From a virus (lineage: Duplodnaviria; Caudoviricetes), in the IMG/VR virus record IMGVR_UViG_3300005512_000183, positions 1 through 32,998 of that record: a stretch of 32,998 nt of DNA. One strand, written 5' to 3'. The notes under the pieces are model-generated. The model did no database searches. It was not told the origin of the DNA and worked only from the letters and a program-made list of their open reading frames with translations. A program made the translations under genes and the position numbers. Shown piece after piece: positions 197-28,778 of the stretch (within the stretch, counting starts at the first letter, position 1; the number at the start of each line of letters is the position of its first letter).

Positions 197-1345
197 TTAT
201 GAAACTCTATATACAAAAGTAAGTCCAATTCCATAAGTGCCGCCATTAGTTACAGTGGATTGATTGTTGCCATAAGTAAAACCATATGAACCATTTGCTC
301 CAATATTCAAATTAGCATTCCATGTCTCTCCAGTTGCATACCATTCTCTAGAAACAATAGTAGCATAGTTCTGTCCAAAAACAGTAAATGGAAGACCACC
401 AAGAGTGCCAGTTGATGTTCCAGAATTAACCCACTGAAGAGTAATCTGACAGTGAACAATTCTACCTACCTTTGTATAAAACCCTTGTTGCGCTACATAA
501 GAACTCGCTGTAGACATTGTTGGAGTGAATGTGCCTTCTTCATAATCGTCAAGGATATTAGCAGCAGTTTTATCTACACCACTACCAAGTTCAATACCTT
601 GAGGAATTGAAATGACTCCATCGCTATGTATTCTTTGTGCATGAACTGATGAATTAATATAAGTATCAATTCTATTACTGTTATGGTCGTATTCTATATA
701 ACCATGATATGTTCCAGCACCAGATGTTGCATTTGCAAACAATAAAGAACCAGCACCAGTTGCACTACTTAATATTGCAATTCCTCTTGCACCAGAAGTA
801 TCACCGACAACAAGTCCAGGCCGTCCATTTGATGCTTGAATAGTGCTTGAACTGGTATTCCGAATCCCCACTGTATTACTGGATGAATCTACTTTTAATG
901 TATTTGTGTCTACTGTTAAGTCACCAGTAATCGCAATATTAGTATCCAGTTTTGCAGAAGTCACTGCACCACTAGCAAGTTCTGTTGTATCAACAGCTCC
1001 TGCAGCAATCTTTGCAGTTGTTACAGCATCATTTGCCAACTGACTTGTATTAACAGAACCAGCACTAGGTACACCGATATCCAGTGTATCACCAAGTGCA
1101 ATAATAAAGTCAATAACATCAGCACTTGTCAATGCAGAGTCAAAGATAATCTGTGAACCACTGACTGTGAATGAATCTTGTGGAGCCTGAATAACACCAT
1201 TAAGTGAAACCAACAGATGATTAGCACTTTGAGGATAGTATGCACCACTATCAAGTGTCAAGTTATAGGTAGCAGTAGCTGAAGTCGTAATCGAATCCAA
1301 CTTTGAATATGCACCAGCCTGTGGTTGTTTTCCGATAAATGGCAT
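197..1345 (-). CDS. Tail fibre / receptor-binding protein
   Basis: MPFIG..P N-terminus, adaptor domain (LLVSLNGVIQAP..FTVSGSQIIF), AVTxAKI spacer repeats, C-terminal DDYEEGTFTP..YTKVGRIVH head domain. Confidence 0.8.
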   Translation of the reverse strand: MPFIGKQPQAGAYSKLDSITTSATATYNLTLDSGAYYPQSANHLLVSLNGVIQAPQDSFTVSGSQIIFDSALTSADVIDFIIALGDTLDIGVPSAGSVNTSQLANDAVTTAKIAAGAVDTTELASGAVTSAKLDTNIAITGDLTVDTNTLKVDSSSNTVGIRNTSSSTIQASNGRPGLVVGDTSGARGIAILSSATGAGSLLFANATSGAGTYHGYIEYDHNSNRIDTYINSSVHAQRIHSDGVISIPQGIELGSGVDKTAANILDDYEEGTFTPTMSTASSYVAQQGFYTKVGRIVHCQITLQWVNSGTSTGTLGGLPFTVFGQNYATIVSREWYATGETWNANLNIGANGSYGFTYGNNQSTVTNGGTYGIGLTFVYRVS

Positions 1346-1370
1346 TATTTACTTTCCTCTATCACTATAT

Positions 1371-1574
1371 TTAGTCTGCATCTGCAATTGTTAAATCACC
1401 AGATTCTACTTGTCTCATAACTTCTAGATAATCTGTGTTTTGTGGTTGTGTTTCATCACTTGTTATTGGAACAATCATCCCACCAATATCAGTATCAATT
1501 TTAATTGCAATATTTTCGTTTGTAAGTTCGTCTAAAATATATTGTGCTGAAATAATATTATATCTATTTTCCAT
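1371..1574 (-). CDS. Small acidic fibre-associated protein (putative chaperone or tip)
   Basis: 67 aa, immediately after the fibre gene; VP..NTDYLEV..GDLTIADAD C-terminus. Confidence 0.7.
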   Translation of the reverse strand: MENRYNIISAQYILDELTNENIAIKIDTDIGGMIVPITSDETQPQNTDYLEVMRQVESGDLTIADAD

Positions 1575-1575
1575 G

Positions 1576-2751
1576 TTATAACTCCGCTATTAGTAGAGGT
1601 GTGCCTACTACATCAACATTATATGCAACCTCATCCGAAACACTATGTCCTGTATCTCTTAAAGCAATTATATTTTTGTATTGTTCATAACTTGCAATAA
1701 TAATAGAATTCGCCGTGCTATTAACATTTCCGTTTCTATGGGTAGAGTGACCACTATTAGGAATAGTAGGAGTTGTTCTCATAGGAGCGCCTAAAGGATA
1801 ACCAAACTGAATGGATGAACTACCAACTCCATTTCCAGCAAGATAACCAGACCCTAATTTTTGACAATACCTTTGACAAAGATAGAGTTCAGCAGCATAT
1901 GTGCTATGCTCGAATGTGGTAGCCTCAGTGCCTTCTTCAAGTTGTAATTGTGCAAATTGAATTTTATCATTGGTGTTATGACAATTACCAAATGCCCAAT
2001 ATATCTGCAATCCTTTGTCAAAGTTTGTCAAAGAAGTAGCAGAAGTTCTTGTAATCGTAAAATAATACCATGTATCTACTGAAGTAAGTGTGAGTGTTCC
2101 ATTGTTAGCAGCTGTTCCGTCACCAGAAATTGTTGCAGAAGTAAACGCAGCACCATGTGTAGTGTATCCAGCAAAGTTATCTGTTGCAGTGGGACAAATG
2201 ATGTTAGTTGAAATTGCTTGGTTTACACTACCACTTCTTTTAATATAACCACTGATAGTAAATGAATTTTTTGCTCTAATACCAGCAAGAGATGAGGACT
2301 CTACTCTTTGTCCAAAGTAACCACCACCATTTCCACTGTTTGCACTTGTTGGGCCTCTTACCTCTGCAAATTTATTGTTTGCATCTGAAGTTGGGCCTCC
2401 ATCAAATACATGATGTGTAGCACCAGTAGGACTCTGATCAAAATGCCCCATCCACCTGTCTGGAGAAAGATATTGCCAAATACCACCAGTATACGTTGCT
2501 GATGTGCCTCTTTGAGATATTCTGAAATTGCCATTGATAAAGACATTTCTTCTACCAGTTTCAATGCCAAGTTTACTTCCAGTAACAGCATCATCAGCAA
2601 TTTTTGCAGAAGAAACAGAACCGTCAGCAAACTTTGCAGAAGAAACAGAACCGTCAGCAATCTTTGCCTGTGTAACAGAACCATCAGCAATGTCAGTGTT
2701 TACAACTGTACTGTCTGGTATTGCCCTTGAATTTAGTTTAATAAGTGCCAT
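1576..2751 (-). CDS. Tail fibre with putative carbohydrate-binding-like head
   Basis: IADGSVxSAK repeats followed by GRRNVFINGNFRISQRG..DRW and QLEEGTEATTFEH..ELYLCQRY motifs typical of phage fibre domains. Confidence 0.8.
   Translation of the reverse strand: MALIKLNSRAIPDSTVVNTDIADGSVTQAKIADGSVSSAKFADGSVSSAKIADDAVTGSKLGIETGRRNVFINGNFRISQRGTSATYTGGIWQYLSPDRWMGHFDQSPTGATHHVFDGGPTSDANNKFAEVRGPTSANSGNGGGYFGQRVESSSLAGIRAKNSFTISGYIKRSGSVNQAISTNIICPTATDNFAGYTTHGAAFTSATISGDGTAANNGTLTLTSVDTWYYFTITRTSATSLTNFDKGLQIYWAFGNCHNTNDKIQFAQLQLEEGTEATTFEHSTYAAELYLCQRYCQKLGSGYLAGNGVGSSSIQFGYPLGAPMRTTPTIPNSGHSTHRNGNVNSTANSIIIASYEQYKNIIALRDTGHSVSDEVAYNVDVVGTPLLIAEL
2593..2691. repeat. 30-bp coding tandem repeat (~3.3 copies; 10-aa IADGSVSSAK)
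   Basis: tcagcaatttttgcagaagaaacagaaccg / tcagcaaactttgcagaagaaacagaaccg / tcagcaatctttgcctgtgtaacagaacca. Confidence 0.9.
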
Positions 2752-2780
2752 TCTGTTCTTTTCCTATTAATCTCTTTTAT

Positions 2781-3056
2781 TTATTCGGTTGGTAGTGCTG
2801 CTTCCATTGCAGTCTTTCGTGCTGCAGCAGTTTCCACTACACCCAAATCAAAGGCCTGAGTAATTTGTGCATCTTCACCTGTTGCAATTGCAATCTCATT
2901 TGCATTGCAATGTTTTACAAGAAGGTCAATAATTTCTTCTTTTGCAACTCGTGCTCTGTTTGTCAAAGCATTATCTGCCCAATCTTGAACAGAAACAGCA
3001 CAATACTCCATACACTTATTTTCTGTGTCTGAAAGTGTCACTGTAATATCTGGCAT
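2781..3056 (-). CDS. Small fibre-associated protein, paralog of 5256..5531
   Basis: 91 aa; shared W..N..NR...AK.EI...L..HCN.NEI.IA.G...Q..QA..LG.V.TAA pattern; follows a C1q-type fibre. Confidence 0.8.
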   Translation of the reverse strand: MPDITVTLSDTENKCMEYCAVSVQDWADNALTNRARVAKEEIIDLLVKHCNANEIAIATGEDAQITQAFDLGVVETAAARKTAMEAALPTE

Positions 3057-3072
3057 TATATTCTCCTGTTAA

Positions 3073-4224
3073 TTATCCTAGTAGGTATCCACCCACAAAA
3101 CTTCTGTTTGCATATATTTGTGAGTTGTTATCGTTGTCAAAAATTAGATAAACTGGTTTTAGTGTATCGTTTGCATTTAGATTAAATACTTTAGAAACGA
3201 AAACATGGTCTTGGTCTGACGAACCTTCATTACCTAAACCTGTCTGAAGCCAAGGGTCACCGCCTGAGTTTCCTTGTGATGTTGTTCCACCACCACCGTT
3301 AATATAGAAACCAGCGTGTATTCTGTTTGCACCACTTGTGAAAGACATAGCAAGGTAAATAAGATATTTACCAGCAACAGGAGCAGTAAATGTTCCAGCA
3401 CTATCCCATCCACTACCAATATTCCAACCAACAGTGCCAAATGCATTTCCATATTGAACTGAGCCATACCCGCCAGCATTTGAAGTTGTTGTCCAACCAG
3501 CAAAGAATGATATTTGATTTGGTTTAGTTACATAACCTTCAGAAGTAAATTCAATTGCATTTGTTCCAGCAGTTCCAGCATCATTTAGCATTCTCATGTT
3601 TGCTTTGTCACCACTCATATAAAAATTCAAGGTTCTTTTGTCAGCAGTCATGTCTGTGTTTGTCAAAGAAATCTCTGCACCACTAGCATTATTACCATAT
3701 ACGACAAATTTTCTATTTGGAGTTAGTGTTCCAATACCAAATTGAGGAGTTGCCCCACCAATGAATTTTAAGTCATCCGAAACATTAAGAGTTCCATCAA
3801 CATCTAAGTTTCCAGCGATATCAATATTCGTATCTAGTTTCGCAGAAGTCACTGCACCACTAGCAAGTTCTGTTGTATCAACAGCCCCAGCAGCAATCTT
3901 TGCACTAGTGACAGCATTGTTTACTAGTTTTGCAGTTCCAATAGAACCGTCTGGTGGAACGACTGAACTTTCAATTGTTCCAGCAATATGAAGAACATAG
4001 AAATTAACACCAGTTGCTGGTGCAGCACTCATCGTCAAAGTTGTTCCATTAACTGTATAAGCGTCTGTAGGTTCTTGGCGAACATTACCTACATAGACAG
4101 CAATATCATTTACAGTTGCAACTTGTTTTGATAACGTAAATACTGTGGTTGAACCGTCTGCTGTAAAATCATCCTTGACGATTGTAGCAAAACCAGCGGT
4201 TGGATTTTTTCCAATAAATGGCAT
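3073..4224 (-). CDS. Tail fibre with C-terminal C1q/TNF-like domain
   Basis: MPFIG..P start, FTADGSTTVFTL adaptor domain, spacer repeats, C1q-like FTAPVAGKYLI..LNANDTL..SFVGGYLLG. Confidence 0.8.
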   Translation of the reverse strand: MPFIGKNPTAGFATIVKDDFTADGSTTVFTLSKQVATVNDIAVYVGNVRQEPTDAYTVNGTTLTMSAAPATGVNFYVLHIAGTIESSVVPPDGSIGTAKLVNNAVTSAKIAAGAVDTTELASGAVTSAKLDTNIDIAGNLDVDGTLNVSDDLKFIGGATPQFGIGTLTPNRKFVVYGNNASGAEISLTNTDMTADKRTLNFYMSGDKANMRMLNDAGTAGTNAIEFTSEGYVTKPNQISFFAGWTTTSNAGGYGSVQYGNAFGTVGWNIGSGWDSAGTFTAPVAGKYLIYLAMSFTSGANRIHAGFYINGGGGTTSQGNSGGDPWLQTGLGNEGSSDQDHVFVSKVFNLNANDTLKPVYLIFDNDNNSQIYANRSFVGGYLLG

Positions 4225-4238
4225 ATTACACTATCCTC

Positions 4239-4571
4239 TTAGGTTTTTTCCATAATACCCAAAACAACATCAAGTGCAGAACCAGTGCCTGCCTGAACCT
4301 TGAGAATGTCTGCGGCCTCTAAAATATATTTTTGTCCAGCAAGAGTTTCCAATGTAGTATTTGCTGGAATACTTACATCCTCTAGTAATTGGTGTGTTGT
4401 ACTCGCAGAATTATCTGTGAATTGAACCTTAACTGTCACCGCTGAAGTTGTTTTATTAGCGATGGCAAGTCCAAGAACAACAACTTGTGTAGCAGCAGGC
4501 GCAGTGTATAGAGTATCATATGAACCTGTTGATACATCAGCAAGAGCCGCATTTTTGAAAGTGTTCGCCAT
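4239..4571 (-). CDS. Small virion beta-sandwich connector protein, paralog of 7729..8073
   Basis: MANTFKNA..LYTAP..IAN..IP..TL..GQK..L..D.LKV pattern shared with 7729..8073. Confidence 0.8.
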   Translation of the reverse strand: MANTFKNAALADVSTGSYDTLYTAPAATQVVVLGLAIANKTTSAVTVKVQFTDNSASTTHQLLEDVSIPANTTLETLAGQKYILEAADILKVQAGTGSALDVVLGIMEKT

Positions 4572-4585
4572 TTTATTTTCCTATA

Positions 4586-5221
4586 TTATCCTAAAGCAAT
4601 CGCAAGTGCAGTTGCATCATCTTCTGGATCAAATGCGAGATCAACTCTTGCAATTGAACCATCTTGAATTTTTGCAGAAGTAACTGTATTATCTGCAATA
4701 GTATTTAGAGTGTTAATGTTATTAAGTTGATAAACTTGAATATTGTTTGTTCCACTTGCTGGAGCACCTGTGAATGTAAGTGTCTGTCCAGTTACAGTAA
4801 ATGCATATGAAGAGCCTTCTCTTTGATAGACATTATCTACAAAGACAATGAAGTTTCTTGCATCATTGGTTACTGGTGTTCTTGTAAGTGTAAACGCAAC
4901 AGTAGAACCATCTCCATTGAATATATCAACGAAAGATTCAGATTGACTAACAGATGCCTGTAGTAGTTGTCTACCCAAATATGTGATAAAGACTCTACCA
5001 GATGCATCTGGTGCTTCAGAAAAGTTAATAACTCCCTGTCCTGTCGAAGTAGATACAGTATAAGAGTAATCTGGCTCCTGTATAACACCGTCCAAAGAAA
5101 CCAACAGTTGTGACGATGTTGATACTGGATAGTCTAGATTAAATTGTGTAGTCGAACCATCACCAGTGAGCACCTGTTTGTCAAATACTCCGTAGGACGG
5201 TTCTGCGCCAATATAACTCAT
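4586..5221 (-). CDS. Tail-fibre adaptor/branching protein (two GDGSTT domains, C-terminal ALAIALG)
   Basis: MSYIG..P start; two GDGST..F..V..DGV.Q..YT..F..AP modules. Confidence 0.75.
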   Translation of the reverse strand: MSYIGAEPSYGVFDKQVLTGDGSTTQFNLDYPVSTSSQLLVSLDGVIQEPDYSYTVSTSTGQGVINFSEAPDASGRVFITYLGRQLLQASVSQSESFVDIFNGDGSTVAFTLTRTPVTNDARNFIVFVDNVYQREGSSYAFTVTGQTLTFTGAPASGTNNIQVYQLNNINTLNTIADNTVTSAKIQDGSIARVDLAFDPEDDATALAIALG

Positions 5222-5255
5222 TGTTGTCTACCTTTATAATTCATACTATTATTTA

Positions 5256-5531
5256 TTACACTTCTTCAGCAGCTTCAGCATCTGCCTGTCTCTGTGCGGC
5301 AGTTTTAACCAAACCAAGACTATATGCCTGATTGACTTGACCGTTTAGACCTAGTGCAATTTGAATCTCGTTTTCATTACAATGTTGAATAAGAATGTCT
5401 GCAATTTCTTTTTTTGCATGATGAGATCTATTAGAAACAACATCTGCTACCCACTGTGTTGGATCAACAACAGCAAATTCTAATGCATCCATATCATAAT
5501 CTTCAACCGTAATTGTAATTGTTTGTGACAT
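5256..5531 (-). CDS. Small fibre-associated protein, paralog of 2781..3056
   Basis: 91 aa, same motif set as 2781..3056; follows the C1q-type fibre 5547..6905. Confidence 0.8.
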   Translation of the reverse strand: MSQTITITVEDYDMDALEFAVVDPTQWVADVVSNRSHHAKKEIADILIQHCNENEIQIALGLNGQVNQAYSLGLVKTAAQRQADAEAAEEV

Positions 5532-5546
5532 AATATTATTTTCTCC

Positions 5547-6905
5547 TTAATTGATTAGTGCGCCCAAAAAGAATGTGTGATGGAAATTAGCAAAAACTGT
5601 TGATGTAGTTCCACTGTTAGCATATGGACACACTCCAATAGTATCGTTTGCACTGCATCGTATTACTACACTTCCAACAACCCTATCTCCAGTAGTTCCA
5701 TTATTGGGGAAACCTACTGTTATACTTCTTCCGCCGGCCTTTACCAACCAAATTTGTTCAACAGAAGTGACACCTACATAAACACCAACGGTAAAAATAT
5801 ACTCACCAGCAACTGGACAAGTAAATAATCCATTACTAGTATTGAAGTTCCCCCCAATGTCGTGATATTCTGCATTAAATGGAACTACTTGTGTCTGGTT
5901 ATTTGGTGTCCACCCTGTCCAGTTTCCACTAAGATATGCCCAAAACGCTGGTTGATGTGGAACAGTGTGATTTCCAAATTTATCAAGACGCATTACTTCT
6001 CTATGGTAATTTCCTGTATAATGAGTCTCAAATGCTATTTCTTGTGATCCAGCAGTATCATGGAATGCGATAGCAGCACCACCAGATACGCCTAAATTAT
6101 AGTTACCAGTGCTATTATAATATTGAATGCGAGTGGGATTAGTTCCACTTTGCAATCTTATATTGCCATTGACTGATAATTTTTCAGCTGGATTATTAGT
6201 GGAAATGCCCACTTGGCCGTTGCTGTCGATACGCATACGTTCTGTGCCACCATTTGTATGAAATGTAAAAGCATTTGATGCGTGTTGGTAGTTTACTTGC
6301 CCAGTTGTTGTGCTATCAGTATCAGCAAAGAATATAGCACTGTTAGATGAGTTATCTGCGTATATGGTAATACCCTCTGAGCCACTACCAGTTCCAACTA
6401 CAAGATTATTTGCACCACCATTAAATGAAGAAGGACTACTAGTACCAATGCCCACGTGGCCTGAGCTGTCAATACGCATACGTTCTGTTGGAACAGAATC
6501 TGATGTTCCACTTCTTGTAGAAAAGAATAAATCACCTTCAGTAGCACCAGTGCCACTTGTTACATCAAAACCTATTACTGCTGCATTTGTATTAGCAACA
6601 CCACCACCCAATCCAAATCCAATATTTAATTTCCTGCCAGTAACTGCGTCTGTAGTTAGATGCAACGCACTATCAGTCATACTACCAGTTGATGAAACTG
6701 TATTTTTGATTTCAAGTTTTGCTACGCCTGAAGTTGTGCCGATGCCCACTCTATTGTTTGTACTGTCTAGATAAAGTGTTCCAGAATCATAGTTAAAGTT
6801 ATTTGATAATTTCGCACCAGTGACAGCTCCAGTTGCAATGTCAACAGCTTCAATAGTTACATCACCATTTAAAAGTTCTGCAATATTTTTTGAATTACTA
6901 GCCAT
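5547..6905 (-). CDS. Tail fibre with ERMRIDS.G.VGIGT shaft repeats and C1q-like head
   Basis: Repeated TERMRIDSSGHVGIGT / TERMRIDSNGQVGIS; C-terminal FNTSNGLFTCPVAGEYIF..HTFFLGALI. Confidence 0.85.
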   Translation of the reverse strand: MASNSKNIAELLNGDVTIEAVDIATGAVTGAKLSNNFNYDSGTLYLDSTNNRVGIGTTSGVAKLEIKNTVSSTGSMTDSALHLTTDAVTGRKLNIGFGLGGGVANTNAAVIGFDVTSGTGATEGDLFFSTRSGTSDSVPTERMRIDSSGHVGIGTSSPSSFNGGANNLVVGTGSGSEGITIYADNSSNSAIFFADTDSTTTGQVNYQHASNAFTFHTNGGTERMRIDSNGQVGISTNNPAEKLSVNGNIRLQSGTNPTRIQYYNSTGNYNLGVSGGAAIAFHDTAGSQEIAFETHYTGNYHREVMRLDKFGNHTVPHQPAFWAYLSGNWTGWTPNNQTQVVPFNAEYHDIGGNFNTSNGLFTCPVAGEYIFTVGVYVGVTSVEQIWLVKAGGRSITVGFPNNGTTGDRVVGSVVIRCSANDTIGVCPYANSGTTSTVFANFHHTFFLGALIN

Positions 6906-7714
6906 TATAGTTGATACCTTACTTGAATGTCAGATGATACTACTGGAGCAAAAGTTATTGTTAGTGTTTGTCCACTAATTGTATAATCTGTTGTTGGTTT
7001 TAAACAAATACCATTATAATATACAAATGCACTATTAGTAGGAATACCAGAGTGTGTTAGTGTAAATGCAGTTGTCGAACCATCACCAGTAAATGTGTCT
7101 AGTTGATAATCGGTTGATCTACGAACCACACCACGAACACCCAAGTGTTTTACTTCAATCTCTGCACTCGCAACAGGAGCGCCAGTAAATGTCAAACTAC
7201 TTCCAGATAGTGTGTAGTTTGTTGTTACCTTTTGAATAATACCATCAACGGCAACCAATAGAGAATTAGCGTTTGGTGGTGTTTCTGACAATGCATAAGA
7301 AGTTGTCGAACCATCACCAGTAAATGTATCTGTCGTAAATGATTTTAAATTTGCAGCAAGTTCTACACTACCAACCGAACCGCCTGGCGGTTTCATGTTA
7401 TAAGAACCAATACCTCTATGAACAACATAAATTGATGCTGTTGAAGAAGGAGATTCAGAGAAATTTAAAATTGTTGGTTGATTAGACGAATTCTCGTGAA
7501 CTGTATAAGCGACATCTGGTTCTTGAACAATATTATCTAGAACTACTAAAATATTCTCTGTATTGGCTCCCGGCACCTCAACAGACAATTCTATTGCGTT
7601 AGAATATGTTGCATAGGCTCCTGTTACGCTACCAAATTGCGATCCAGTGAAATCCTCTTTGGGAAAACTTGGAGACACTTGATTAACATATGGAACACCA
7701 ATATAATTAGACAT
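6905..7714 (-). CDS. Tail-fibre adaptor protein with three GDGSTT-type domains
   Basis: MSNYIG start; two FTGDGSTT modules plus one divergent module; DNA repeat gttgtcgaaccatcaccagtaaatgt near 7071 and 7301. Confidence 0.75.
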   Translation of the reverse strand: MSNYIGVPYVNQVSPSFPKEDFTGSQFGSVTGAYATYSNAIELSVEVPGANTENILVVLDNIVQEPDVAYTVHENSSNQPTILNFSESPSSTASIYVVHRGIGSYNMKPPGGSVGSVELAANLKSFTTDTFTGDGSTTSYALSETPPNANSLLVAVDGIIQKVTTNYTLSGSSLTFTGAPVASAEIEVKHLGVRGVVRRSTDYQLDTFTGDGSTTAFTLTHSGIPTNSAFVYYNGICLKPTTDYTISGQTLTITFAPVVSSDIQVRYQL

Positions 7715-25000: not shown

Positions 25001-25291
25001 TTATCCTCCAGCGAATACATTAGGAGAACCAGCGGCAACTGAAGTGCAACCACTAATACCATCTCCTACTCTTCCCGCTCCTTTTCCATTTACTTTTACT
25101 GTTGAAGAACCAGAAGCGATAGGTGCAGAATGAGATGGACAAGGAACTCCTGGCAAAAGGTGTCCAGTATTATTATCTCCTTGTCTACTCCAAGGTATTC
25201 CGTTTACAAATACATTCGGACTTCCAGCTGCTCTTGTCATTCCAGAGCAGTGTGCTACATCTGCATCTCCTATTCTAGTTGCTGCCGGCAT
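25001..25291 (-). CDS. PAAR spike-tip protein (gp5.4-like)
   Basis: PAATRIGD / PWSRQGD / GAGRVGD repeats, His/Cys metal ligands, GSPNVF. Confidence 0.95.
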   Translation of the reverse strand: MPAATRIGDADVAHCSGMTRAAGSPNVFVNGIPWSRQGDNNTGHLLPGVPCPSHSAPIASGSSTVKVNGKGAGRVGDGISGCTSVAAGSPNVFAGG

Positions 25292-25496: not shown

Positions 25497-27431
25497 TTAT
25501 GCCAATTGATAAAACTTACCGTAGTCTCTATATCTACTGTGATTCCAGAATGTAGCAATCTCAGTTCTGTTTCCAGAATCTTTACAAGATAGATGTATCC
25601 ATGGCAGTCCTGTTCCTGTGTTTTTAAATTCTAATAGTAACTGATCGTGTGGAACATTTGCTCTAATCCACTGTGCAATTTCATAATACTCAGACTTACT
25701 TACTCCAGTAAATTGCATATCAGCTGCCTGTCCTCTTTCATGCTGAGACGTTCCTCTGGCTGGACGGAATGCATTAGTGACAAACATATTTGGATATTGA
25801 TTCTTGATAGGATCAAGAGCATGAACCGCAAGTGTTTTAAGGTTATCAATAATTTTCTGTTGCGTCAAACCATGTTGTCCACCAGTAGGTATTGCAGTCT
25901 TAGAAACAACTGAATACTTAGATAGTTGTCCAAGATTAAAGTGAGTAGACAATTGAAGATTGTAGTTCACTCCACCAATATAGTCACCGTTTGCATCATA
26001 GTTTTCTGGTGGCGATTCTTCTAGTGAAGAAGAAGCAGAAGATGCTTCTGGTTCTGCAACATAGGTATTCTCTTGAGTATTATGTTCACCAACTTCATCT
26101 GGAAGTCTTGGTTGTGCGGTTAGTCTTCTTGTTGCAGCGGTAGCATTAATTGAACCATTGATAGAATTGTATGAGTAATCGGCAAAAGAAGTTGGACGAA
26201 TTTGACCAGACTGAACTGCAGCAGCAATTTCCTCTGCGGTTTTTTCAACATCATCTCCAGCAAAGAATGCTCCGTCATCTGGTAAGTCTACAAATACTTT
26301 AGCGTCTAGAACCTCTGCTTCTTTTGGTGCATCAATTGTTTCTGCAAATCCATCTGTATCATATTCATCCTCTTGAATAGACCATGCCTTGATACCAGAA
26401 GCAAGAGTCCCACTATCTAGATAAACCATTGCGGGCGCAATCTTTACATCCGCTGTAGAGCGAGGAACGATAGGAGATATAGTTACCGCCTGTCTTCCAT
26501 TCGTATTCAAATCAATAGTTGGGCCGTCAAGGTTCATTGCACCACCAGAACCAGCATTGAATGCAGCTGCGGTATCTAGTTTCATTGCACCAGTAGATGC
26601 GTGAGTATATGTTCCTTCTGTGTTCAGAGCAACATTACCAGTAATATTTGTTGATAGTGTTCCAGCGATTTCTTTAAGAACGTCACCATCAACAACCGTA
26701 TCTTGATTACCTCTTACCACTGTGTTGAAGTTTGCGTTAGTAATGATCTGCATATCTGCGTCAGATTGTTGTAAGAACTTTCCAACAGAGATTTGAGACA
26801 TAGTTGTTTGTGCTGTCATCTCAATAGATTGATTTGCAAACATACGAATATTTTGTCCAGCATGGAAATCAATATTCTTTCCAACATTGAACTTTAAGTT
26901 CTCATCTATCTGTCCATACATATTTCCACGAACATATAGATTAGTATCTCCATCAACATACACATTAACATTACCACGAACACGAACCTGTTTGTTTTTG
27001 TGAACAATCTCATAGTCCTCACCAACAATCTTAGTTACCTTTGTTCCGTCTGGATGAATCTCATAAAATGTGCCTGCACGATGATACTCATGTATTCTTT
27101 CAAATCCTGGCGTATCATCAAACTCTTGAATGTGCCCACTCTCAGTTTCCCTTACATGATTGAATGGATACTTTGGATTAGCAGGACTTTTAGGCTCTCC
27201 TGTCAAATCATCTACCGCACCCTGTTTTGCTTTAATAACAGGATGCTGATTCGTTGCGTCATTTACCGCAAGTCTATTTGTGTCTACCTCATTAACCCTA
27301 CGAGGATAGAATGAGTTAGGATCGGAAAACCCCTGTAGACTATTTTCCGTAGATACAATAATTTCAATTTCGTCTGTCGCAGCTGGTGGGGTATCAAATA
27401 CGATTCTATTTGCTTCTATAGTATATGCCAT
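25497..27431 (-). CDS. gp5: gp5 C-terminal part (beta-helix spike) fused to an M15A-type Zn peptidase
   Basis: YPFNHVRETESGHIQEFDDTPGFERIHEYHRAGTFYEIHPDG (gp5), 8-aa V.G repeats; C-terminal FR..SQHERGQAAD..WIHLS. Confidence 0.9.
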   Translation of the reverse strand: MAYTIEANRIVFDTPPAATDEIEIIVSTENSLQGFSDPNSFYPRRVNEVDTNRLAVNDATNQHPVIKAKQGAVDDLTGEPKSPANPKYPFNHVRETESGHIQEFDDTPGFERIHEYHRAGTFYEIHPDGTKVTKIVGEDYEIVHKNKQVRVRGNVNVYVDGDTNLYVRGNMYGQIDENLKFNVGKNIDFHAGQNIRMFANQSIEMTAQTTMSQISVGKFLQQSDADMQIITNANFNTVVRGNQDTVVDGDVLKEIAGTLSTNITGNVALNTEGTYTHASTGAMKLDTAAAFNAGSGGAMNLDGPTIDLNTNGRQAVTISPIVPRSTADVKIAPAMVYLDSGTLASGIKAWSIQEDEYDTDGFAETIDAPKEAEVLDAKVFVDLPDDGAFFAGDDVEKTAEEIAAAVQSGQIRPTSFADYSYNSINGSINATAATRRLTAQPRLPDEVGEHNTQENTYVAEPEASSASSSLEESPPENYDANGDYIGGVNYNLQLSTHFNLGQLSKYSVVSKTAIPTGGQHGLTQQKIIDNLKTLAVHALDPIKNQYPNMFVTNAFRPARGTSQHERGQAADMQFTGVSKSEYYEIAQWIRANVPHDQLLLEFKNTGTGLPWIHLSCKDSGNRTEIATFWNHSRYRDYGKFYQLA

Positions 27432-28489
27432 TATGCAATCCCTTTTTCTGCAGCGTATTCTGCAAGAGTAACAGTTCCGTTCTTTAATTTAGCGGGCGGT
27501 GATTTACCAAATGCTGCTGGGTAGAAGTGTCCACTGTCATTATCAATTTCATTTTCCAAACCATATGGAGCAAACGCTGCTCGTGCGACACCAGTGTAGT
27601 TAGATGTTCCTCTACTACCATCATCGTATCTACCGTCAACATAAATTGTTAAATCAATAGCGGATGCGTAGTTATGCCAAGATGAACCAGGCCGTGCAGC
27701 CTTTGGGCCTCCTGCTTGATAGTTACGATAGAGTTCTCTTTGTTGTGCAATACTTCTATATGAAAATGCGATATTACAATCATATCCATTTTCTGAATTG
27801 TCTGCGATAAACTTTTTAACCCCATCTGCAAACTTTGATCTAACACTAGGAGCAATTTGATTAATCTTATTTGCAATGTTAGATGCAAACCTAGAACCAG
27901 AGAAATCATTTGCGGTATATGTTGTTCCACCACCATAATCATTTGTATCTGTTTCAACATTGTTTGGTGAAGATGGAGCTTGATTTGATGGTTGTTGAAC
28001 TTCACCATTAATCTTTACAAGAACAACTGCATCAGTTGTATCTGTTGGGGTCGAGAAGGAAGTTCTAGAACCGTCACCTTGAACCGTGACTGTGTTTATT
28101 TGTGGTGGTGGTAGAACTTGTTCGTCAGAATAATCAAATGGTGATTGTCCTTGCGGTGCTTGTGATGCAGTCTTTGTGCCAGGCAAAGTTCCCCATATCA
28201 TTGGTTCTTGCATATAATCTGGATCACGCCAGAAACCAACAACCCAAGTTCCCTCAATCGGGCCTGTAGGAGATGAACCAATACCACCAGAAGAAGCAGA
28301 GTTCGCTGGTTGAATACAAAATGCCCATGGCAAATCTCTAGTGGGAATCTTTGTCTTATCTTCTGTGTGGTGTCCGAACACACGAACACGAACACGACCT
28401 AATGCCTTAGGGTCGTTGCGATCTTCAACTACACCAATCCACCAAATGAATCCATCTCTTCCCAAAGAATATACATTGTTTTGCGCCAT
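27431..28489 (-). CDS. gp5: gp5 N-terminal OB-fold fused to an M15B/C-type peptidoglycan peptidase
   Basis: WWIGVVEDRNDP..LGRVRVRVFGHHT..LPWA..EGTWVVGFWRD (gp5 OB); YRS..QQ.ELY..ARPGSSWHNY..AIDL..DSGHF. Confidence 0.9.
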   Translation of the reverse strand: MAQNNVYSLGRDGFIWWIGVVEDRNDPKALGRVRVRVFGHHTEDKTKIPTRDLPWAFCIQPANSASSGGIGSSPTGPIEGTWVVGFWRDPDYMQEPMIWGTLPGTKTASQAPQGQSPFDYSDEQVLPPPQINTVTVQGDGSRTSFSTPTDTTDAVVLVKINGEVQQPSNQAPSSPNNVETDTNDYGGGTTYTANDFSGSRFASNIANKINQIAPSVRSKFADGVKKFIADNSENGYDCNIAFSYRSIAQQRELYRNYQAGGPKAARPGSSWHNYASAIDLTIYVDGRYDDGSRGTSNYTGVARAAFAPYGLENEIDNDSGHFYPAAFGKSPPAKLKNGTVTLAEYAAEKGIA

Positions 28490-28529
28490 AAAGAAAAACC
28501 CCTTTCCAGTATTTATACCGAAAAGGGGT
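28490..28529 (-). terminator. Rho-independent terminator ending the early operon
   Basis: ACCCCTTTTCGGTA-TAAA-TACTGGAAAGGGGT stem-loop running into TTTTCTTT. Confidence 0.8.
28510..28517 (-). promoter_or_regulatory. T4-type late promoter TATAAATA at the hairpin apex
   Basis: Exact consensus 20 nt upstream of the gp5 ATG. Confidence 0.85.
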
Positions 28530-28701: not shown

Positions 28702-28778
28702 TGGTCGGAGATGTAGGATTTGAACCTACGACCCCTACATCCCAAATGTAGTGCGCTACCAGACTGCGCTAATCTCCG
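28702..28778 (-). tRNA. tRNA-Pro(UGG) with encoded CCA
   Basis: CGGAGATTAGCGCAGTCTGGTAGCGCA-CTACA-TTTGGGA-TGTAG-GGGTC-GTAGGTTCAAATCCTAC-ATCTCCG-ACCA; C1:G72 and A73 match tRNA-Pro identity. Confidence 0.97.

Follow-up and report, generated by a model that had tools for sequence, protein, structure and literature searches.

The 32,998-nt stretch of viral DNA analyzed here (hereafter the window; positions 1 to 32,998 of IMGVR_UViG_3300005512_000183, Duplodnaviria; Caudoviricetes) encodes the central spike protein of a T4-type contractile tail, gp5, in two adjacent genes, as do other members of a group of marine T4-like phages. Gene A (27431..28489, minus strand, like every part of the pair described below) specifies 352 residues with an OB barrel, the first half of a small beta-domain and an M15 peptidase. 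Gene B (25497..27431) specifies 644 residues with the second half of that domain, the gp5 arm, a beta-helix needle, an acidic linker and a second M15 peptidase. The two open reading frames share a single base in an overlapping stop and start (TAATG), and a Shine-Dalgarno-like AAAGGGA (27439-27445) lies 7 nt ahead of B's ATG, the whole junction occupying 27429..27445. Both the coupling and the ribosome-binding site named in a preliminary description of this DNA are present, the site being of middling strength: its pairing energy with the anti-Shine-Dalgarno sequence, -5.1 kcal/mol, is mid-range for 16 starts in the window (-3.3 to -9.3).

The OB barrel of A, the part of the protein that binds the hub in T4, spans residues 12-104 (28178..28456; Pfam Gp5_OB, E 2e-16), with A 14-114 aligning to T4 gp5 8-110. 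It is followed at residues 133-168 (27986..28093) by the first half-module, which hhalign places at positions 6-40 of the module profile described below and which corresponds to strands 1-3 plus a short hairpin strand in the model of the intact module. The C-terminal M15 zinc peptidase (residues 193-345; 27455..27913) matches Pfam VanY (E 1e-6) and, by Foldseek, structures 2vo9 (E 2.3e-6) and 6akv (E 3e-5). It is modeled confidently, with Ply500 and LysB4 as its best structural matches and the VanY/LdcB carboxypeptidases matching more weakly, and we predict that it is a Ply500/LysB4-like L-Ala-D-Glu endopeptidase. Four of its residues (H272, D279, D318 and H321) are kept in 58/58 A relatives and R245 in 57/58, so that the His-Asp-His zinc ligands, catalytic Asp, Arg and fold of the M15 family are all accounted for, taking the roles of these residues to be those of the familiar M15 motifs. 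This anatomy agrees with the earlier proposal that the hydrolase sits on a free C-terminus. In a model of the complete A protein built on a 14-sequence alignment, residues 1-186 fall below 50 in predicted local distance difference test (pLDDT); because these include the OB barrel, the low confidence of the first half there is uninformative.

Gene B begins with the second half-module (residues 1-27; 27351..27431), which corresponds to profile positions 42-65 and strands 4-6. Directly after it lies the arm, which corresponds to the C-terminal portion of the OB domain in T4 (residues 30-66; 27234..27344; Pfam Gp5_OB positions 75-108), where B 27-54 aligns to T4 106-132. The triple beta-helix needle (residues 76-310; 26502..27206; phrog_430, E 1.5e-64) corresponds to T4 gp5 376-478 and 495-575, with B 76-310 as a whole aligning to T4 376-575 at E 9e-21 and B 78-178 to T4 377-477. 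Past the needle tip, where PAAR binds, window positions 25512-26489 encode an acidic linker of ~170 residues and the second M15-type peptidase (residues 488-640; 25512..25970). The latter matches phrog_894, an endolysin family, at E 2e-13 and Pfam Peptidase_M15_3 at E 0.049, which is under the cut-off; H564, D571 and H613 are invariant in 57 sequences. Such a C-terminal extension is reminiscent of those of VgrG proteins. The preliminary description had overlooked this second peptidase.

T4 gp5 itself comprises an OB domain (1-129), a lysozyme (174-339) and a needle (389-575) (PMC7650644), and is cleaved to gp5* and gp5C at Ser351/Ala352 (PMC3004832, PMC7650644). Given this extent of the OB domain, the alignments above put the break between A and B near T4 residue ~105, within the OB domain, whose end B supplies. 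The preliminary description had linked the 352-residue length of A to T4 cleavage after residue 351; that link does not survive, and we regard the similarity of the two numbers as a coincidence. Of the features of a T4-type gp5, the N-terminal OB domain and the beta-helix needle are present here, and the single polypeptide and the lysozyme with its cleavage at 351 are not. The peptidase of A sits upstream of the arm, and the position of the T4 lysozyme is empty: B passes from arm to helix in ~25 residues, and a Pfam scan found no lysozyme match. Among 150 cluster representatives (the best 150 of 1291), the OB-arm junction is shorter than 40 residues in 73 and at least 40 in 53, the remaining proteins lacking an OB domain (22) or an arm match (2). 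Sixteen long proteins of this set were scanned, and lysozyme, GH19 and VgrG3-like hydrolases were among the matches. Judged by these sequences, the OB-arm junction is a cargo site.

The domain that is divided between A and B occurs intact elsewhere in the window. A protein encoded at 6905..7714 (minus strand) carries three copies of it, and others lie within 197-1345, 3073-4224 and 4586-5221. A profile was built on seven intact copies, chosen by eye, from four window genes; its 68 positions make the module somewhat longer than the ~60 residues first proposed, while its repetition in the fiber proteins holds. In a model of the last two copies of the 6905..7714 protein (pLDDT 91), strands run at positions 3-7, 14-16 and 27-31, followed by a short strand and then by 42-45, 48-51 and 60-65, so that a break at about position 40 leaves three main strands to either side. 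The model matches the N-terminal part of CBA120 TSP4 (TSP4-N; Foldseek, E 1e-4), T7-type fiber N-domains (2.2-2.8 Å over ~70 columns) and many tailspike N-termini, and Pfam Phage_T7_tail and DUF4183 match the intact copies. As modeled, the intact copies thus take the jelly-roll fold of the gp10/TSP4 XD2-XD3 domains and the T7 fiber N-terminus; the assignment to XD2/XD3 in particular follows from size, since aligned ranges were not listed. In TSP4 XD2/XD3 and the XD domains of T4 gp10, which are jelly rolls, the first and last strands are adjacent (PMC8825819). The two halves in A and B would accordingly contribute neighboring strands, and neither would be expected to fold alone. Antibody light-chain matches to the module were disregarded as the coincidence of a short motif. 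The region that holds the intact copies (197-7714) is a cluster of short fiber-like genes, four bearing one to three copies and several ending in C1q-like or other C-terminal heads, with genes of 67-114 residues interleaved as paralogous pairs.

Scored against the profile, A 135-168 covers positions 6-40 at 3.0 bits, a score reached by 7 of 1000 shuffles, and B 2-25 covers positions 42-65 at 9.7 bits, reached by 1 of 1000. Weak hhalign matches fall in the same registers (E 1.2e-4 and probability 55% for the A half; E 0.011 and probability 4% for the B half). By itself each half is a weak match; the strong part of the comparison is their exact abutment, which recurs in relatives. In 14 relatives the best A match ends at or before profile position 41, and in 11 of the B proteins the match starts at position 42. 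No positive score was obtained for one A protein and three B proteins of these relatives, or for any of six proteins from a second split clade. Over a wider set of 58 full-length A relatives, 53 score above zero and 44 of these end at positions 38-41. The best 120 of 591 B relatives (327-1133 residues long) include 102 carriers of the second half, which is N-terminal in every one, as it is in 6/6 carriers among the 150 representatives. An atlas search with the first half returned no usable match. The complementary registers, more than the individual scores, argue that the gp5 halves derive from a module of the gp10/TSP4/T7-fiber type, and they agree with the earlier reading in which the upstream frame ends the first half before its peptidase and the downstream frame opens with the second.

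The two-gene split of gp5 is real and conserved. Positions 27425-27490, where an indel might have divided a single frame, are bridged by one gap-free contig in each of 4/4 DNA runs and likewise in a fifth; one of these runs may itself be the source of the window. The contig from the fifth run has a depth below 3 and an altered stop codon in A. Three RNA runs yielded no junction-bridging contig among those listed; RNA contigs cover parts of A and B and cannot show transcription. Contig mapping also produced five 'joints' with short sides and 85% likeness, all of which we treated as coming from other organisms; one leaves out the junction (27320-27518, 24-base side) and another most of the first half plus the peptidase (27533-28177, 36-base side).

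The same split recurs widely in relatives, as the preliminary description had anticipated. We examined 254 loci, 160 of which have a peptidase match of at least 40 bits: 144 are split with the second half starting the next gene, four lie at contig edges, 12 show unrelated contexts and none is fused (those 12, which have a related peptidase but neither OB domain nor half, were excluded from the split count). The 144 include many duplicates and near-identical sequences and reduce to 59 distinct half pairs and 52 distinct junctions. In all 144 informative loci the break falls at the same place, with the second half at B's start, and in 140 the first half is in the peptidase's frame, the others being clipped by contig ends (three) or having the first half ahead of an internal stop (one). 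A premature stop lies within A's peptidase at L188:2435-3154; near-identical L187 is intact, and L188 is either an assembly error or a dead variant. The distance from stop to start is -1 at 128 of the 144 loci, giving the one-base overlap, and +1, -4 and +3 at six, five and five, respectively. Eight additional loci from a more distant subgroup (~45% identity in B) are split alike. Four genomes of the cultured Methylophilales phage Melnitz carry both genes at 65% identity, and in the one that was inspected both halves are present and the junction is again TAATG. In a tree built from the OB domains of 52 selected proteins, the 11 half-module proteins share one branch (100/98), and two other split groups fall separately, each on a branch of its own, with the deeper forks unresolved. 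The registers of the halves and this conserved break together confirm that gp5 is interrupted in the middle of a beta-domain.

What the halves do is a separate matter. We consider it likely that they rebuild the domain non-covalently and so act as a clasp that holds the OB-peptidase chain (A) and the needle chain (B) together, a reading suggested by the complementarity of the halves, their co-occurrence and their conserved core residues. Translational coupling would keep the amounts of A and B matched, three B chains would trimerize through the beta-helix, and the OB barrels of three A chains would bind the hub and take up B's arm, so that a T4-type OB domain would be restored in trans. Because the first and last strands of the fold lie adjacent, strands 1-3 of A and strands 4-6 of B would then interlock. 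The peptidase would hang off the module in mid-loop with its C-terminus free, and no proteolysis would be needed to part it from the needle. The role would be akin to that of T4 gp5*, although the break point and the enzyme differ. Binding to a gp27 hub and capping by PAAR are putative here; a PAAR gene lies next to B.

Conservation speaks for this reading most clearly in the second half, where 6/6 core hydrophobic columns are kept in a 57-sequence alignment. Over both halves, 8/12 core columns are kept at 80% or above, compared with 4/49 non-core columns. Ratios of nonsynonymous to synonymous substitution (dN/dS), from 42-44 disjoint pairs, are 0.26 for the first half and 0.18 for the second, so both halves are under purifying selection; the OB barrel gives 0.088, the arm 0.056, the peptidases 0.22 and 0.11, and the linkers 0.16-0.23. 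Several observations weigh against a clasp. The halves are no more constrained than the linkers that flank them. The first half keeps 2/6 core columns at the 80% level, with two more at 0.79 and 0.69; its first-strand Phe falls below that level, and in one subgroup its hairpin carries charged residues. Other split gp5 lineages, including that of phage PhiM9, manage without the module, and OB-arm contacts may therefore suffice. No gp5 with an intact module turned up among the 150 representatives or the 120 B relatives, nor, as weaker evidence, among 135 longer candidates, and the ancestor proposed below is thus unobserved. Finally, the start of B is placed from sequence alone, and we infer, rather than observe, that the halves come together.

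These points lend some weight to the main alternative, in which the halves are relics: the peptidase and its stop broke the module, a spacer in A and a translation-start leader in B remain, and the two chains are held only by inherited contacts among OB barrel, arm and needle. Selection no stronger on the halves than on linkers, and far weaker than on the arm and OB barrel, would be expected of such remnants, as would the partial degeneracy of the first half, and a split gp5 lacking the module does exist. Across 57 sequences with identities as low as 47%, however, the second half keeps a constant length and all six of its hydrophobic core residues, and no informative locus has lost either half, so we think relics rather unlikely. 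Less probable again is that the halves fold with other partners, the second perhaps as a homotrimeric needle cap or either with other tail proteins, or that the rebuilt module mainly docks another trimeric tail protein. XD2/XD3 modules dock trimeric partners in T4 gp10 and TSP4 (PMC8825819), seven intact copies are encoded in the window, and the second half is the more conserved of the two, all of which would suit such roles; yet the fit between the two halves is exact, they are invariably found together on adjacent genes, and the intact copies, being complete, lack no strand that a half could supply. That A and B are really one protein, divided by an assembly error or joined by programmed frameshifting or read-through of the stop, is barely credible: B is in frame after the stop in 3/52 distinct junctions, a slippery-type heptamer occurs in 3/52 and the low-depth contig alters the stop codon, but 49/52 junctions lack a heptamer, the four different offsets fit no single recoding event, B always begins with Met, frame A of the stop-loss contig stops again five codons on, and both the contigs of five runs and cultured Melnitz carry the split.

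A stronger version of the clasp is a possibility that we put forward tentatively, regarding it as doubtful as a whole. Within the contractile spike the pair would form a latch made of a split domain, with the jelly roll rebuilt strand by strand into a releasable joint that needs no protease and that sheds the OB-peptidase chain during penetration, and the halves, of ~35 and 27 residues, would amount to a self-assembling tag pair.

As for its origin, the arrangement probably arose from an ancestral gp5 with an intact module at the OB-arm junction, into whose loop a C-terminal peptidase cassette, stop included, was inserted. The peptidase subfamily of A is also C-terminal in unrelated spike proteins just before gp25 (L231:5472-8036 and L233:2380-4734), and these end in a C-terminal helix similar to that of A, which suggests that the enzyme arrived as a cassette carrying its own stop.

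The spike of the window shares with T4 gp5 a homologous OB domain, arm and triple beta-helix, a PAAR gene that follows, and a hydrolase that closes the chain bearing the OB domain and that would here, too, be joined non-covalently to the needle. Unlike T4 gp5, it is made from two genes and needs no proteolysis, its break maps to ~105 instead of 351, its enzyme is an M15 peptidase at another site instead of a lysozyme, and it has two features that T4 does not possess, the divided jelly-roll module and the further peptidase that follows the needle. Some gp5 proteins made as one chain place a hydrolase (lysozyme, GH19 or VgrG3-like) at the same cargo site, after the OB barrel and ahead of the arm. 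Many of these end in an M15 peptidase, and none has a chain break or the module. The corresponding domains of T4 gp10, CBA120 TSP4 (XD2-XD3) and T7 gp17 (N-terminal) match the model of the intact module (PMC8825819) and are single-chain, whereas here the domain is split across the products of two genes and an enzyme sits where it is broken.

Two-gene gp5 has been reported in Sinorhizobium phage PhiM9 and Rhizobium phage P10VF, where the OB and beta-helix parts are in separate proteins (PMC4621102), a precedent that the preliminary description does not mention. The separation is the same as here, going by their description, and the sections of that report consulted mention no split accessory domain or peptidase (PMC4621102). 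Genes 154 and 155 of Melnitz (MZ577097) are orthologues of A and B, and their only annotations are 'OB domain protein' for the first and 'baseplate hub subunit/tail lysozyme' for the second. The passages of the Melnitz paper that were consulted do not discuss the pair; its main text contains neither 'peptidase' nor 'spike' and claims no lysin-like genes besides gp67 (PMC9004378). A literature search that excluded most subscription papers found no published description of the split module.

Further gp5 arrangements came to light among the loci examined. The gp5 of Pelagibacter phage Mosig is of the ordinary one-chain kind and carries no cargo, and two further split types lack the module. One of these (L013-L018, L020-L026 and L029; e.g. 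L013:4992-8302) has the same junction and encodes an OB domain with a VgrG3-like hydrolase (PF21277 on P0234), then a predicted-helical N-terminal region of ~220 residues, arm, needle and M15 peptidase; P0041, P0042 and P0068 are one-chain proteins with the same cargo. An apparent three-piece gp5 (L036:4998-7868; also L044, L065, L070 and L078) comprises an OB-only gene of 99-103 residues, a small gene plus a middle gene of 312-439 residues, and a beta-helix gene of 300-336 residues. Two OB proteins of ~573 residues (L040:4995-6716 and L067:1316-3034) end in a domain that begins with what is presumably a Hint/intein-like start motif.

Around the A-B pair, the window has the makings of a T4-like baseplate region. 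Downstream lie the PAAR tip protein gene (25001..25291, minus strand; Pfam PAAR_motif, E 1.4e-11), a nuclease gene, and then the baseplate genes gp25, gp6, gp7-like, gp9-like and gp8. The PAAR gene that follows B occurs in several sequence types that are swapped between close relatives (the window, L002-L012 and L256-L263), for example between L009 and L010 and between L257 and L261. Upstream, the motif TATAAATA, which we take to be a T4-type late promoter, lies at 28510..28517 (minus strand), 20 nt ahead of A, and none lies within A; four matches occur in the window compared with 2.2 expected. Directly upstream of it is a tRNA-Pro(TGG) (28702-28778), and Melnitz has a tRNA-Leu in the equivalent place.

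If the halves do rejoin as we suspect, the A-B pair would show cleanly how an inserted gene can halve a domain whose pieces are then kept as a clasp between chains, in a load-bearing part of the phage injection machine. Halves so small could also serve as a split tag. The arrangement bears, moreover, on how spike hydrolases may be carried and released without the proteolytic cleavage used by T4, and it would add two overlooked predicted virion peptidases to Melnitz, a cultured phage of abundant marine bacteria.

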